Assembly (NCBI GenBank): GCA_965203925.1
Contig: OZ241924.1
Coordinates: forward strand, 768,629 to 832,628
Length of the DNA: 64,000 nt
From: Bryobacterales bacterium
GTDB lineage: Bacteria; Acidobacteriota; Terriglobia; Bryobacterales; UBA6623
Direction of reading: 5' to 3'
In this document: in pieces, positions 35,342-41,719 of the stretch
Layout of the letters: each line of letters opens with the position of its first letter
Position numbering within the stretch: position 1 is the first letter of the stretch
The notes under the pieces: model-generated
What the model saw: the letters and a program-made list of their open reading frames with translations, nothing else
What the model was told of the DNA's origin: nothing
Databases searched by the model: none
Program-made: the position numbers and the translations under genes

Positions 35342-35461
35342 GACAAGCCGATTCTCCCGTCGAGTGCTTATTGCACGATCCGATCCGAACCGCACTAGGC
35401 GCTGTACGATGGAGCCGTATCCGGCTCGGCCCCGACCAAGCCACCATAAGGAACCGTAATG
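35342..35461 (+). repeat. 120-bp direct repeat, copy 1 (leader + RBS AAGGA + ATG)
   Basis: gacaagccgattctccc...ccataaggaaccgtaATG. Matches 41600-41719 with three substitutions. Confidence 0.95.
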
Positions 35462-36786
35462 CCGTCACTCCGCAGGCGATGTTCCAGATCCTTGCGGGAC
35501 TTGGAGACATCCAGCAACCCAAACGCCCTCTCGAGTGGCCCCGCAACTTGCTTGGCAAACGCCCCCGTCGGTGCCCGGTCCAGACCCGCTTCGGGCTTCG
35601 CGGGCCCAGTTTCGGAAAGGCGCTCAGCGCCCTGTCAACACGCTGGGGAGAGACGATCGCGCTCCCAATGGCGGGGCCGCGGCCAACTGGCTCGGCCTAA
35701 CGACACAGAACTCGGTTTGCTGCCTTTACCTCACCTCCGGCCCCAACTGTCTCCAGCACTTCGATACCCATCCGGTCGAATTGCTCCGCGCACTACGGTG
35801 GCAACTGGCTTCGCCACACCGAACGGCCGAAGTCGTCATCCGCGCCATCGCGAGGCTTGGTCCGGTAGAGGTTGAGAACAGCCTGGACGCCGTCCTGCTA
35901 GCGCTCTCCGGGGAAGATCTGCATAAGCTTGCCGCCGCACGTGTCCACATACCGACACGGATGGCTGAATCGTAGAGCGCTCGCCTTGCCGATGGATGCT
36001 GCAGCGTATTCTTCTTTCTCGGCCAACGAAGGGCGTTACGCCCTGCAAGTGGCGGGGCGAGTTGGCGACCGGTCCGTCGGCGGATGCCATCCTGCACAGT
36101 CTGACGGGCTCACAACCGGCGTGGGTGTCCGAGCGGAGACATCCGGTGCAGGCTTGGGCGAACTGTGTAGACCGGCTCAAGGCAGGGGAAGAGATGGACC
36201 CTGCGCCTCGCGCCGGTGCTGAACCCCCTTCCCGGGGGGATAATTGCAGCGGGGAGCGAATCGCCGGGACAGTTGGCATTAGGGTGTCCCACGGCGACAA
36301 GGCCCGGGCCGTGGCGGATGTCCCTTCCCATGTCTCCGGCCGGTAGAATGGCAAGAACATCCGAGTCGTGCCCGGCCGTCGGGTGAAACGTGCGGACAGG
36401 CGATGGATGCTGGTCTGAAGCGCCGATGCCGGGAAGGATGGACCTAACGGCCCGGAATTCGCCCGCAGAAGCTGCGGAGCGGGGTTGGCGTTGTCTCTAC
36501 CCCTCGGAGAATCCAAACGTCCAAACCAACCCCACGCGCCAGATCCCGGCCTCCGGACGCTTTACTTCGACCACCTGCCCTCTCATGCTCAATGCCCGCG
36601 AACCCGCCGCCGTATTCGGCCTCGAACTGTCGTGGCCCTCGTTCTCATGTTGATCGTCGCGAGACATTTGCCACAGCGAATGCGGCAACTCCGGGCGTGG
36701 GCTCCGTCGGCTGTCGAAGCACCGAGGCTCGACGAGTCCCCGGCCATTGAGGCGAATGGCGGTCGATTCGGCCAGATGAGGGGAAC

Positions 36787-37917
36787 ATGAAGGTGCCGGA
36801 AGAGACCAAGTCCGACTCCCCGGCCCCGCACATGTTCTCAGCGGCCCCGCTGTGCATGTGGTGGAGGCTGATTCGAGAGAACGGAGGCATTACGCGTCCC
36901 TATTGGGGGAGGTTGGCGAAGGTGCTCGCTACGAGCCTTGCAACTGCACCCCTGCGCGTCCTGGAAAGCCTGTACTCGACACCGGCACTGGCTCGGACAC
37001 GCATCACCGAGCCGCCGGTGTACGTTCACGGCTTCGCGCGCAGTGGCACGACGTACCTGCACAACGTGTTGGCGCACGATCCAGGATTCGGATACGTGTC
37101 CACGTTTCAGGCGGCGGCGTCCCCGATGTTTCTGGTCGGCAGGGGCTGGCTGGAACGCATAATCGCGAAGAGGCTGCCGAAGAAGCGTCCGATGGACGAC
37201 ATGGCGGTGTCTCTGGAGCTGCCCCAGGAAGAGGACGTCGCCCTGGCCGGCATCTCGCATCTGTCGCCAATGCACTTCCTTTCCTTTCCGAACTCCGGGC
37301 CCGCAGTGCTGGAGAAGTTCGCCCGCATGCGGTTGACCTCCAGAGAACTCGCAGAGTGGGAACGAACGTACACCAAGGTGTTGCTCAAGGCGACGCTGGC
37401 GTCGCGCGGACGCCGACTCGTTCTGAAGAGTCCTGCCATGCTGGGTCGCACTTCGAGCATTCTGCGCCTCTTCCCCGACGCGAAGTTCATTTTCGTCGTG
37501 CGAAACCCCTACATCGTGTACTTGTCGGCGCTCAAACTCTACCGCACCATGGTGCCGATGTTCCAGCTGACGCCGGTCGACTGGAATGCCGTAGAGGTGG
37601 CGATGCGCGACAACTACGTGACGATGATGCGGAGGTACATGAGGCACCGCAAGGCGATCCCCGACGGCAACCTCATCGAGGTGCGTTTCGAAGAAGTCCT
37701 GGAAGATCCTCTAGGCGAGATCGAACGGATATACACGAGACTGAGTCTGCCGGACTGGAAACGGGCTCGCGGACCGATGGCAGAGTACCTGCAAACGCTG
37801 GTCGGCTACAAGGCGACACGCTACAGCATCCACCGAGAGACAATCGACATCGTCGACCGACACTGGGGATTCGCAGTCGGGGAATGGGGCTACGAGCCTC
37901 CCCAGCCCGACAAATAA
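36787..37917 (+). CDS. PAPS-dependent sulfotransferase, Stf3-like (Sulfotransfer_3)
   Basis: 5'-PSB loop PPVYVHGFARSGTTYLHNVL, KRPMDDMAVSLELPQEED, LVLKSP, 3'-PB FIFVVRNPY, IEVRFEEV. Confidence 0.88.
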   Translation: MKVPEETKSDSPAPHMFSAAPLCMWWRLIRENGGITRPYWGRLAKVLATSLATAPLRVLESLYSTPALARTRITEPPVYVHGFARSGTTYLHNVLAHDPGFGYVSTFQAAASPMFLVGRGWLERIIAKRLPKKRPMDDMAVSLELPQEEDVALAGISHLSPMHFLSFPNSGPAVLEKFARMRLTSRELAEWERTYTKVLLKATLASRGRRLVLKSPAMLGRTSSILRLFPDAKFIFVVRNPYIVYLSALKLYRTMVPMFQLTPVDWNAVEVAMRDNYVTMMRRYMRHRKAIPDGNLIEVRFEEVLEDPLGEIERIYTRLSLPDWKRARGPMAEYLQTLVGYKATRYSIHRETIDIVDRHWGFAVGEWGYEPPQPDK

Positions 37918-38195
37918 CCCGAACGTTCACCAAGAGACGTGCAAGCCCTATCGGTCTCGGCCGCCCCGAAGGGCCAGCGCCGCAACACAGCCTATCCACA
38001 GACAAACCGTGCGCGACGGACACAATCTTGCCGCCAGCTACAATTTACGGCAGCGCTCGTTGCCGGGTCCGGACAAGCGTCGTTCAGAAGCGTCGTCGCG
38101 GGAATGCCGACGGTTCGTTGGAAACGAAATCGAGCTGATCGAGGCTACAGTCGCCGAAGAGTATTGCCGAACCGTCAGAGTCTGTCCAGCCAACC

Positions 38196-40251: not shown

Positions 40252-40270
40252 CCGAAAGGAAGGGAGCGTA

Positions 40271-40811
40271 GCTCGCTTCGTTCACATCTACCGCGACGGT
40301 CGGGACACGGCGATATCGATGAGCAAGCACCCCGGCTTTCGTCCGATGGCGATCAGATCGTTGATGCTCGAGAAGATCGGGCTCGAGCCGTTCTCGGCGG
40401 CGAACTGGGGGGAGCAGTCCCTGGGTGCACATTCCCGCCCGGATCCAGATGCGCCTCATGCCGCCGAAGTGGCTCCTGTCCAAGGAAATCCCGCTCGCGT
40501 CCTTCGGCTGGTTGTGGAGCGGAATGATCGAGAAAGGTACGGAGTTCCTCAAGGCGTTGCACCTGGAAAGGACGCTCTCGATGCGATTCGAAACGCTGCT
40601 CAAGTCGCCGAACAAGGAGATGACTCGCTTCATCGAATTCGTGGGGCCCGAGCTTGCGAACCAGCAGTGGCTCGAAGAAGTGAGCGCCCTTCGGCGTCCG
40701 AAGGCACCGGTCTGGCCTCGACTGGAAGCCACGCAGCAGGCCAGGCTGGCTGAGGCACGCGCTCGAGGGCAGGAGATCCTCGTTTACGCGACCGCCAGCG
40801 GGAGCCCCTGA
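40271..40811 (+). pseudogene. 5'-truncated, frameshifted sulfotransferase fragment
   Basis: ARFVHIYRDGRDTAISM (3'-PB motif) begins 20 nt after the P450 stop with no 5'-PSB loop. It continues in another frame after about 40420 as IPLASFGWLWS...SMRFETLLKSP...RFIEFVG. Confidence 0.7.
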
Positions 40812-41599
40812 ACCGCAGCCACGCCTTCGTCGGCCTCCGGCTTCGTGGATGCGAGCGCCAGTAGCGTCCCGAAGGCAGCCAGTGTCACATCCGCGGCTGC
40901 CGTGGCCAAAGTGCCCGTATGGATGATGTTCAGCCCCGCACCCAACGCCTCCAGACCGGGAGGTGGTGGCTGTCCACCACTCACGACGCGGTGCCGGGCG
41001 TATCGGGGAAATTCGCCAGAAAGCAAGCGGCGGCAGCGCGAGCACAGGGTCAAGGACCGCCCTAGTTCGGGCTTGCGGATCCGAGCAGCGAGTCTCATCC
41101 TGCGGGATTGCGGCCACCCCGGAAGGCCATGTCGCGGATCCGCTGCGGTGTGAACCGGAGGCAGGCTCGACTCCGGAATGGGAGGCTTTGAGCCATCCCG
41201 CTGCGACCACGGACGCTGGCAACCAGTTCCAGTCCCTCTCGTCTATGGGCGCCCGGCAGTCCCAGCACACAGCCAGTAAGGTACCGCGACTTTCTTCTTC
41301 CAGCAGAGCGGGCCGTGCAGCCAGGGCACCAGAAGAGAGCGGAGTGGCGGCGGCCATTCCTCCGTGGCCCGTGCGAGATGATGGTGGCATGGAGCGGGTG
41401 TTGTCCGCGTGCCATTCTGCCGCTGAAGACTGCCATATGCGGTATGGAGAGGTCACTCACACGGTATTTTTTGATTGGTCGCTCAAGTCAGTCAATCGCA
41501 GAATATGGTCCTGTGCAGCGAACATTGGCATGTTGCAGGCCAGCGAACGGGCCACGATACTCTGATCTCGCCCCGTAAGTCCGCATTCGCCGCAGGTGA

Positions 41600-41719
41600 G
41601 ACAAGCCGATTCTCCCGTCGAGTGCTTATTGCACGATCCGATCCGAACCGCACTAGGCGCTGTACGATGGAGCCGGATTCGGCTCGGTCCCGACCAAGCC
41701 ACCATAAGGAACCGTAATG
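41600..41719 (+). repeat. 120-bp direct repeat, copy 2 (supplies RBS and ATG of the GH109-like gene)
   Basis: Matches 35342-35461 with three substitutions and ends exactly at ATG 41717-41719. Confidence 0.95.

Follow-up and report, generated by a model that had tools for sequence, protein, structure and literature searches.

An F-prime plasmid or specialised-transducing phage that excises imprecisely takes adjacent host DNA with it, and homologous re-entry duplicates this DNA around the element. A study of conjugation in E. coli found that 56 of 60 integrants came from a circular molecule that recombined through one crossover, and in the 14 integrants that were sequenced the homologous segment, 109-950 bp in length, was duplicated (PMC3240628). 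Homology-facilitated illegitimate recombination, for which PMC5361080 cites de Vries and Wackernagel 2002, Prudhomme et al. 2002, and Meier and Wackernagel 2003, is predicted to delete, not duplicate, recipient DNA (PMC3240628). Here we describe an insertion of foreign genes in a sponge-symbiont acidobacterium of the Bryobacterales, whose genome is a single closed contig of 7,061,630 bp. Coordinates refer to the window, the whole 64,000-nucleotide stretch of this contig that was analyzed.

Positions 35342-35461 and 41600-41719 form a direct repeat of 120 nt. The first-pass annotation had reported three mismatches and copies that end at a ribosome-binding site (RBS) and ATG, and the alignment agrees: the mismatches lie at 35418, 35421, and 35430, and AAGGAA-N6-ATG is the terminus of each copy. 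A repeat search stretched the pair to 123 nt (35339-35461 and 41597-41719; 97% identity, spacing 6258). The repeat edges are sharp on either side. In the 60-200 nt outside the left edge, 329-744 of 1000 dinucleotide shuffles scored at least as well as the real local alignment; outside the right edge the corresponding figure was 583-980 of 1000. An early hint that the duplication might be longer than 120 bp was ruled out by this test. The 123-mer occurs just twice in the complete genome. By the suggested genome-wide count, the 120-mer is thus not a dispersed multicopy repeat of the REP or MITE kind. A genome-wide self-comparison for similar intergenic direct-repeat pairs returned only one unrelated 399-bp pair and gene-internal paralogous pieces; with no comparable pair, we rejected a systematic mechanism that makes such leader duplications across the genome.

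The two copies lie between conserved neighbors. To the left, on the minus strand, is a gene for an HpcH/HpaI-family aldolase (34168..35166; PF03328, E 1.6e-6) that shares 92.6% nucleotide identity with its counterpart in L007 and is collinear in the relatives L007, L008, L009, and L010. Leader copy 1 (35342..35461, plus strand) is divergent from this gene and now points into the insert, while leader copy 2 (41600..41719, plus strand) starts and serves a GH109-family gene (41717..45291, plus strand; PF01408 and PF21252). The family matches uphold both placements, which had previously been made from the letters and translations. Downstream of GH109 is the conserved right neighbor, a sulfatase-like gene by reading of its translation (45304..46710, plus strand), and collinearity with L007 on this side extends to 46952. 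In L007 (aldolase 96% identical in amino acids) and in the complete chromosome of L009 (90%), the aldolase gene is followed without interruption by the intergenic region, a single leader, and GH109, the empty site for which a search of relatives had been proposed. Both flanks of the insert fall on overlapping coordinates of the single leader in these genomes. On the left, copy 1 runs on into ancestral, single-copy intergenic DNA (35167..35341) that is collinear with L007 and L009 at 79% identity; on the right, copy 2 runs into GH109 as in both relatives. The comparison shows that 6,138 bp of foreign DNA (35462..41599, plus strand), missing from the empty-site relatives, entered directly behind the GH109 ATG in an ancestor of this strain, and that the upstream 120 bp including this ATG now flank it on both sides. 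Tandem segmental duplication was rejected, as the cargo is missing at the site in L007 and L009 and, as a unit, from the genomes of other species of the genus.

Read from their sequence, the duplicated 120 bp contain a promoter-like core, a 5' hairpin, an RBS, and an ATG. In copy 1, a -10-like TACGAT (~35405-35410) is followed by a predicted hairpin, GAGCCG-TATC-CGGCTC (35412-35427), and then by AAGGAA and ATG; in copy 2 the hairpin loop reads GATT. We considered and rejected a riboswitch or other known RNA, both for the leader and for the cargo segments without assignment: an Rfam search of 33000-47000 gave no match to the leader, and the leader fold was not significant (z-score -1.05 against shuffles). 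Across relatives, conservation is limited to the 6-bp stem of the hairpin; the loop varies, and there are no compensatory changes. The single Rfam match in the searched interval was to Xoo8, inside the sulfotransferase gene and below threshold (21.8 bits against a gathering score of 90).

The bases of the two copies record their history. At the three sites that differ, copy 1 carries a derived T (35418), a derived C (35421), and an ancestral C (35430); copy 2 has kept the ancestral G and T at the first two and has a derived T at the third (41688). At 7 further sites the copies have derived bases in common, indicating that the resident lineage's own sequence was duplicated. Consistent with this, the copies are 97.5% alike and each is only ~81% identical to the orthologous leader, so the duplicated DNA stems from the same lineage, and the duplication dates from well after the split from L007. 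The first-pass annotation had proposed an ancestral arrangement of divergent aldolase and GH109 genes, with a leader duplicated by entry of the cargo, and the empty site and the seven shared derived sites bear this out.

The insert is a patchwork, a non-autonomous and decaying islet in which the first sulfotransferase gene, ST1, is the only clearly intact one. It opens with a 114-bp stub (35464..35577), not assignable to a gene, with 85% identity to sequence that precedes an AbiEi gene in a same-genus genome, G014; the homology begins 2 nt past the duplicated ATG, and those two bases are CC. A DUF6088/AbiEi antitoxin relic follows (35579..35975, plus strand) that is frameshifted and, through a 360-bp deletion relative to G014, lacks its promoter and ~59 N-terminal codons. 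An intact 198-aa AbiEi paralog is present in L006 (4758-5354; PF19570) with an intact AbiEii partner (PF08843). In the insert, the AbiEii toxin gene is a stub of its first ~28 codons (35977..36060, plus strand), and homology to L099 stops at 36060. Copy 1 had been described as starting no recognizable protein. This holds for the frame of its ATG, which opens a family-less ORF of 138 codons, but the AbiEi relic follows in other frames. Beyond a 726-bp segment with no family, homolog, or Rfam match (36061..36786) lies ST1 itself (36787..37917, plus strand; 376 aa; PF13469, E 4.6e-30), with 67% nucleotide identity to a 373-aa ST1 in G006. A GPP34-P450 fusion gene (38196..40251, plus strand; PF05719 and PF00067) is split into two frames at a G8 tract (38924-38931); an 80%-identical paralog is a single ORF of 709 aa that reads GGGCGGG where the insert has G8. 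The second sulfotransferase gene, ST2, is a frameshifted 3' half (40271..40800, plus strand) from which ~170 N-terminal codons are gone, and the remnant has 72% nucleotide identity to residues ~172-299 of an intact 351-aa ST2 in G006. At the right end are the last ~430 bp, a non-coding 3' tail, of an IS1595/ISXO2-like element (41070..41503, plus strand) and a 96-bp segment (41504..41599) that separates it from copy 2. The tail is 65-68% identical to element 3' ends in G008 (two copies of a 1528-bp unit) and G014; its transposase gene is gone, and tblastn found no transposase remnant at the relic. A tblastx search with 36061-36786, 40800-41070, and 41504-41599 gave only noise.

The insert is not a mobile element. 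Neither Pfam searches of every long ORF nor a reading of the unassigned parts in six frames revealed an integrase or recombinase within or beside the repeats, and we found no replication or mobilization gene in the cargo, no terminal inverted repeats at 35462 and 41599, and no short (2-15 bp) target duplication. The earlier statement that the cassette holds no integrase or transposase is correct for intact genes; it had missed the IS1595-like 3' end. A transposon or composite transposon was rejected: terminal inverted repeats are lacking, the duplication is 120 bp, the only IS sequence inside is a 3' relic that stops 96 bp short of the joint, and the intact IS of this locus lies outside the cassette. 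This IS (42557..44809, plus strand; 2253 bp, 37-nt inverted repeats, DDE transposase) interrupts GH109, leaving an N-terminal portion at 41717 to ~42560 and a C-terminal one at ~44806-45291. GH109 is uninterrupted in L007 and L010; L007 lacks the IS, and the insertion point shows a 4-bp overlap. It has four full copies in the genome, all 100% identical and each with CTAG at both ends, and IS-free GH109 joints (42556 to 44806) are present in the independent metagenome X4 and in X14. The IS in GH109 is separate from the cassette, younger, and recently active.

Direct repeats around foreign DNA with toxin-antitoxin and IS debris are also what would remain of a site-specific integrative element, if its attP shared a 120-bp block with the GH109 leader and if its integrase, along with most of the element, had since been lost by deletion. 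Att identity blocks reach ~100 bp in some actinomycete integrative plasmids, and other mobile DNA has settled in the same intergenic region of L010, where T2SSE ATPase, ArdC, YhgA-like, and Uma2 genes, debris of conjugative elements and defense systems, lie beside the leader. Islands do, therefore, settle next to this leader. However, the L010 insert has its breakpoints near leader position 50 and ~100 nt away from the aldolase gene, that of L008 has one ~60-90 nt from this gene, and neither genome has a leader duplication. These different inserts with different breakpoints indicate that there is no site specificity and rule out an att site shared across lineages. Moreover, not even a relic of an integrase lies between the repeats, the 120-mer is found nowhere else in the genome, and no leader-like sequence linked to the cargo was found in 24 same-genus genomes. 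The element's copy would also have to match, at 97.5%, a fast-evolving leader that is 81% identical to that of L007. We consider this origin unlikely.

We also weighed the possibility that the chromosome has the empty site and that the cargo with one leader is a separate circle, an episome threaded into the chromosome by the assembler. The k-mer graph, in which the left flank and the end of the cargo lead into a single repeat node and the cargo start and GH109 lead out of it, fits both layouts. Logan contigs are built from 31-mers, all three mismatches lie at least 31 nt inward of the repeat edges, and these contigs can therefore neither phase the 120-bp repeat nor detect rare excision. Consequently, evidence for integration rests on the long-read assembly, closed as one 7.06-Mb contig, and on equal depth. 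Depth over cargo and flanks was ~38 and 38 in X2 and, in X3, 5.6 against 5.3 and 5.7, and by our calculation the collapsed repeat contig has 1.55-fold the flank depth, which fits two copies with allele-specific k-mers. One 6198-bp contig from X3 covers 35432-41629 with 0 differences, and an independent coral metagenome (X12) contains cargo and flanks at ~98-99% identity. There was no sign of the excision or amplification raised in the first-pass annotation: cargo and flank depth agree in X2 and X3, and no joint of 35341 to 41600 was present in Logan contigs, which cannot resolve this repeat. With the absence of replication and mobilization genes counting further against a free circle, an artefact is very improbable. 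In the search for a donor or precursor, an exact match to the sulfotransferase protein was not on record, the 32-mer of the right joint was missing from metagenome contigs, and a protein search of such contigs found relatives at 31-36% identity only. On the earlier suggestion that copy 1 may drive cargo expression, only weak metatranscriptome contigs lie over 36720-36895 (1 difference) and 38743-38916, and no RNA contig covers 35203-36004.

The likeliest mechanism, to which we assign a probability of about 0.5, is that a circular DNA carrying the leader integrated through one homologous crossover. Such a circle would have arisen in a conspecific cell with the leader up to its ATG, possibly by imprecise excision of an island adjoining the leader, in the manner of an F-prime or specialised-transducing phage. 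On entering a naive chromosome it would integrate by one RecA-type crossover within the 120 bp of homology (Campbell integration), and a crossover of this kind necessarily yields the order leader, insert, leader. The flanking repeats do duplicate resident sequence that is single-copy in the uninserted relatives; they are long enough for a RecA-type crossover, with a longest perfect block of 76 bp, and fall inside the 109-950 bp of the precedent. The start of the insert, at an arbitrary point upstream of AbiEi, would look like an imprecise excision joint, and the toxin-antitoxin and IS relics are typical island debris, which favors a circle. Duplicated DNA from the same lineage is also what a circle from a conspecific cell would bring. 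GH109 would keep its own expression signals through copy 2, and copy 1 would fire into the insert, whose genes all share its orientation. The repeats could also permit rare RecA-dependent loss or tandem amplification. Against integration of a circle stand the number of events needed, from a first insertion through imprecise excision and transfer to the crossover, and a search that found no circular form, no donor, and no precursor with an island beside a single leader. The mismatches show no simple sorting into donor and recipient, with at least one derived base in each copy, and later mutation fits them equally.

The main rival, which we regard as a real but distinctly weaker possibility, is illegitimate insertion in one step, with fill-in duplicating 120 bp around captured DNA. 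The chromosome could have suffered a staggered break, its two nicks separated by 120 nt, or a stalled fork could have switched to foreign DNA as template and resumed 120 nt behind its exit point (FoSTeS/MMBIR or alternative end joining). One event with two non-homologous joints matches the two sharp edges and the absence of a recombinase and inverted repeats, and the duplicated bases would, as observed, belong to the resident. Several template switches could account for the patchwork of truncated genes, and one internal deletion of the cargo sits between short imperfect repeats, indicating that microhomology-type events occur in this DNA. The outer joints, however, have no clear microhomology (the base adjoining the right joint differs, A against T, and the left joint has the two unassigned bases CC), and 120-bp target duplications are unusual in bacterial break repair. 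Nor does the genome offer a near-identical template for the cargo pieces (best paralogs 80% and 69%), so any template was foreign. The genome also has no Ku gene, making classical end-joining capture unlikely, and we rejected NHEJ capture on this ground.

Integration of a circle gives no mechanistic reason for a right edge exactly at the start codon, and we take the position as coincidence. Were it not, an unrecognized process would target translation starts and copy promoter, RBS, and ATG. The cargo would then be expressed from captured signals while the host gene kept its own, amounting to promoter capture without an element-encoded recombinase. We give this idea the least credence of all those considered.

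The locus is a natural case, at base resolution, of foreign genes gained without a mobile-element enzyme and with the landing gene unharmed, and it includes the empty site, a datable duplication, and decaying cargo. In sponge-associated Bryobacterales, foreign DNA has repeatedly landed in the region between aldolase and GH109. The sulfotransferase and GPP34-P450 genes of this genome are accessory and were gained recently, a point that bears on reading them as symbiont metabolism.

Compared with known systems, the event is ordinary in kind and well documented, and reveals no new mechanism. As in genomic islands whose attL and attR repeats are made by tyrosine integrases, the accessory DNA has direct repeats at its borders, occupies a variable position amid conserved genes, and leaves its target gene intact. 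Unlike those islands, this one has no integrase, its breakpoints are not shared with other lineages, and its target is neither a tRNA nor the end of a conserved gene; its repeat is lineage-specific intergenic DNA. With homology-facilitated illegitimate recombination, as portrayed in the work cited above, it shares the recombinase-free gain of foreign DNA next to a conserved anchor and the truncated genes at the joints. That process uses a linear substrate with one homologous end, whereas here the recipient lost nothing and gained 120 bp. In contrast to an F-prime or transducing phage, the insert retains neither conjugative nor phage functions, and the host segment taken along is just 120 bp. 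The closest likeness is to the Campbell-type integrants of E. coli, in which foreign DNA lies between direct duplications of resident sequence without a dedicated recombinase (PMC3240628). Here, by contrast, we only infer the circle, and the event was natural and is old enough to have gathered three mismatches. In the E. coli integrants the length of the duplication is that of the homology carried by the circle, and their range of 109-950 bp includes the 120 bp found at this locus (PMC3240628).

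The leader that carries the GH109-family gene to its start codon (41600-41719, copy 2) recurs as a direct repeat at 35342-35461 (copy 1), and 6,138 bp of other DNA (35462-41599) lie between them. An ungapped alignment of the two copies covers 120 nt and has three mismatches, and a repeat search of the window recovered the same pair as 123 nt at 97% identity and a spacing of 6258. Both terminate in AAGGAA-N6-ATG, in line with the RBS and ATG that the first-pass annotation had read there. Its gene assignments also held: an HpcH/HpaI-family aldolase gene (Pfam) lies divergently on the minus strand to the left of copy 1, and the gene that starts at copy 2 contains GFO_IDH_MocA and Glyco_hydro_109_C domains. 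Similarity stops at the repeat edges: when 60-200 nt of flanking sequence were aligned locally, the scores were in the range of dinucleotide-shuffled controls. The repeat is not dispersed, occurring exactly twice in the closed 7,061,630-bp contig (window, C1:768629-832628), and a genome-wide scan for direct repeats of 60-400 bp, spaced 0.8-60 kb apart, yielded no other case of an insert bracketed by copies of an intergenic leader. These data confirm that the leader duplication is real and far beyond chance.

A search with the aldolase protein placed the source organism in the Bryobacterales (Acidobacteriota). Related genomes retain the empty site. In the closest relative (L007; aldolase 96% identical at the amino-acid level), window positions 28000-35461 correspond to 3828-11291 and 41617-42560 to 11189-12132, coordinates that overlap. 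In a second relative with a complete chromosome (L009; aldolase 90%), 34172-35461 correspond to 10002-11293 and 41602-42334 to 11174-11908. Each has a single leader, and base-level alignment revealed that the left side of copy 1 runs on into the ancestral intergenic region and the right side of copy 2 into GH109. Metagenome X14 contains a further relative that lacks both the cargo and the insertion sequence (IS) described below, represented by two contigs overlapping inside one leader. The single leaders in L007 and L009 and the cargo-free relative in X14 show that the proposed ancestral layout, with aldolase and GH109 genes diverging from one intergenic region, is correct. Identity is 97.5% between the two copies but falls to ~81% against the orthologous L007 and L009 leaders, and at 7 sites both copies differ from the state that these relatives have in common, indicating that the duplicated sequence is this lineage's own. 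By the same comparison, the duplication dates to roughly one-eighth of the divergence from L007. Collectively, the empty sites and the leader identities support the earlier proposal that the cargo entered by a leader-duplicating event, and we regard insertion of foreign DNA with duplication of the resident leader as established (probability above 0.9).

Sequencing runs containing the window, all from sponge and coral samples, were consistent with the assembly. In X3, one 6198-bp contig spans 35432-41629 with zero differences; cargo and flank depths are equal in X2 and X3, and the contig into which the 120-nt repeat collapsed reaches 1.55 times flank depth, the expectation for two copies differing at three sites. 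Cargo pieces in X4 have about one difference each, and in X12, from another study, cargo and flanks alike are about 98-99% identical. Since these independent samples carry the cargo, the insert is stably inherited and co-diverges with the host genome. The strain's own runs had no empty-site joint among their 31-mer contigs, although contigs of this kind can neither resolve the phase of a 120-bp repeat nor reveal rare variants.

The insert is a decaying, non-autonomous islet. At its left end is a 114-bp stub that matches, at 85% identity, the region upstream of an AbiEi gene from a same-genus genome (G014); the homology begins 2 nt past the duplicated ATG. Next comes a DUF6088/AbiEi relic, frameshifted and with its promoter and about 59 codons removed by a 360-bp deletion that lies between two short imperfect repeats. 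There follow the initial ~28 codons of an AbiEii toxin gene, an unassigned 726 bp, an intact sulfotransferase of 376 aa, a GPP34-P450 fusion, the 3' half of a second sulfotransferase (intact in G006, at 351 aa), an unassigned ~420 bp, the last ~430 bp of an IS1595/ISXO2-like element (41070-41503), and an unassigned 96 bp at the right end. A G8 tract at 38924-38931 places the GPP34 and P450 halves in different frames. An 80%-identical paralog in the same genome (C1:2144336-2146465; L100 6337-8466) is a single 709-aa ORF with GGGCGGG at this position; the tract may reflect a frameshift that is fixed, variation in tract length, or a homopolymer consensus error. Finding GPP34 fused to a P450 in a bacterium seems unusual in its own right. 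The complete IS1595/ISXO2-like unit in G008 measures 1528 bp; in the window, the element is represented only by its non-coding tail, which had no Rfam match. Elements of this type in the genus (L102 3096-4623; L103) carry such a ~430-bp tail downstream of their transposase gene, conserved across species at 65-68% identity.

Repeat, composition and Pfam searches of the insert found no integrase, transposase ORF, terminal inverted repeats or composition shift, in agreement with the first-pass annotation on the first two. The closest matches to the insert come from the same genus (65-85% nucleotide identity), so the donor was probably another species of that genus. In G014 (C59; L099 5860-8337), an AbiEi/AbiEii homolog pair lies directly behind sulfate adenylyltransferase, PAPS reductase and APS kinase (ORFs read by eye), a sulfate-activation context that would suit sulfotransferases.

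Because copy 2 keeps GH109's own signals, the insertion itself would have been neutral for this gene. GH109 is instead interrupted after ~281 codons by a 2253-bp IS (42557-44809; 37-nt inverted repeats, DDE transposase, CTAG at both ends), and its C-terminal part restarts at ~44806. The IS has four full-length, 100% identical copies in the genome and is missing from L007 and from strains of other metagenomes (X4 and X14), indicating a separate event younger than the cassette. Thus, the GH109-sulfatase unit was inactivated recently, by the IS, after cassette insertion. Collinearity with L007 ends at 46952, right behind the sulfatase gene, where another variable segment probably starts.

All cargo genes share the direction of copy 1 and no plus-strand terminator-like site was found between 35462 and 36787, making transcription read-through from copy 1 possible. 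In a coral metatranscriptome, short contigs with 0-1 differences cover 36720-36895 and 38743-38916, a weak signal that may include DNA carry-over; none covers 35203-36004. Within the leader, the ancestral base at the three mismatches is in copy 2 at two (G, T) and in copy 1 at one (C). All three mismatches lie in a 13-nt stretch (P about 0.026 if three sites were placed at random), and two of them change the four-base loop of a hairpin, GAGCCG-NNNN-CGGCTC (35412-35427 and 41670-41685). The stem is retained in all five leader versions (both window copies, L007 with one outer mismatch, L009, and L010, a relative described below), whereas the loop varies: it reads TATC in copy 1 and GATT in copy 2, and the full set of five is GATT, GATT, GACG, TATC and GATT. 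No stem has a compensatory change, so the stem represents conservation rather than proof of structure; the leader matched no Rfam family and its fold was no more stable than shuffles. From its position just after a conserved TACGAT, the hairpin may form a stem-loop at the 5' end of the mRNA or serve as an operator.

The aldolase/GH109 intergenic region is a recurrent landing place. L010 (aldolase 89%; 1000-9990) has a different 9-kb insert there, encoding Uma2, Ada, a T2SSE-type ATPase, ArdC, a YhgA-like protein and DUF6036. Its leader has been reduced to the promoter-proximal ~70 nt, and no repeat flanks the insert. L008 (92%; reverse-complement coordinates 7254-7904) has unrelated DNA from about 60-90 nt off the aldolase gene. 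An att site was rejected: the three lineages have three different breakpoints, with the sequences next to both start codons kept in each, as selection in a divergent promoter region would allow. Elsewhere in the genome, a 399-bp non-coding direct repeat (C1:288752-289150 and 307262-307660; 99.7% identical) surrounds an 18.5-kb stretch with, by eye, ISAzo13-like and IS1634-like transposase ORFs, a 1819-aa helicase-like ORF and AAA/PD-(D/E)XK-like ORFs; this stretch, too, may be an island with long direct repeats at its borders.

This structure at the aldolase/GH109 locus requires one of two routes: a single event in which 120 bp of target were duplicated, or homologous crossover with a DNA molecule on which those 120 bp were already present. 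A one-step event, by staggered break or template switching, would generate the same repeat and is a serious but less likely rival: the genome has no Ku gene and the outer joints have no clear microhomology. The left joint cuts donor DNA at an arbitrary point, resembling imprecise excision, and a relative has an island beside the leader. On these grounds we favor, at roughly even odds, the crossover by a molecule that would already have borne the leader. Direct experimental precedent comes from E. coli, where single crossover of a circular molecule gave rise to 56 of 60 integrants of conjugated short-homology DNA; the 14 that were sequenced had 109-950 bp of the homologous segment duplicated (PMC3240628). 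The event at this locus is well documented, but it belongs to a known kind and is not mechanistically new.
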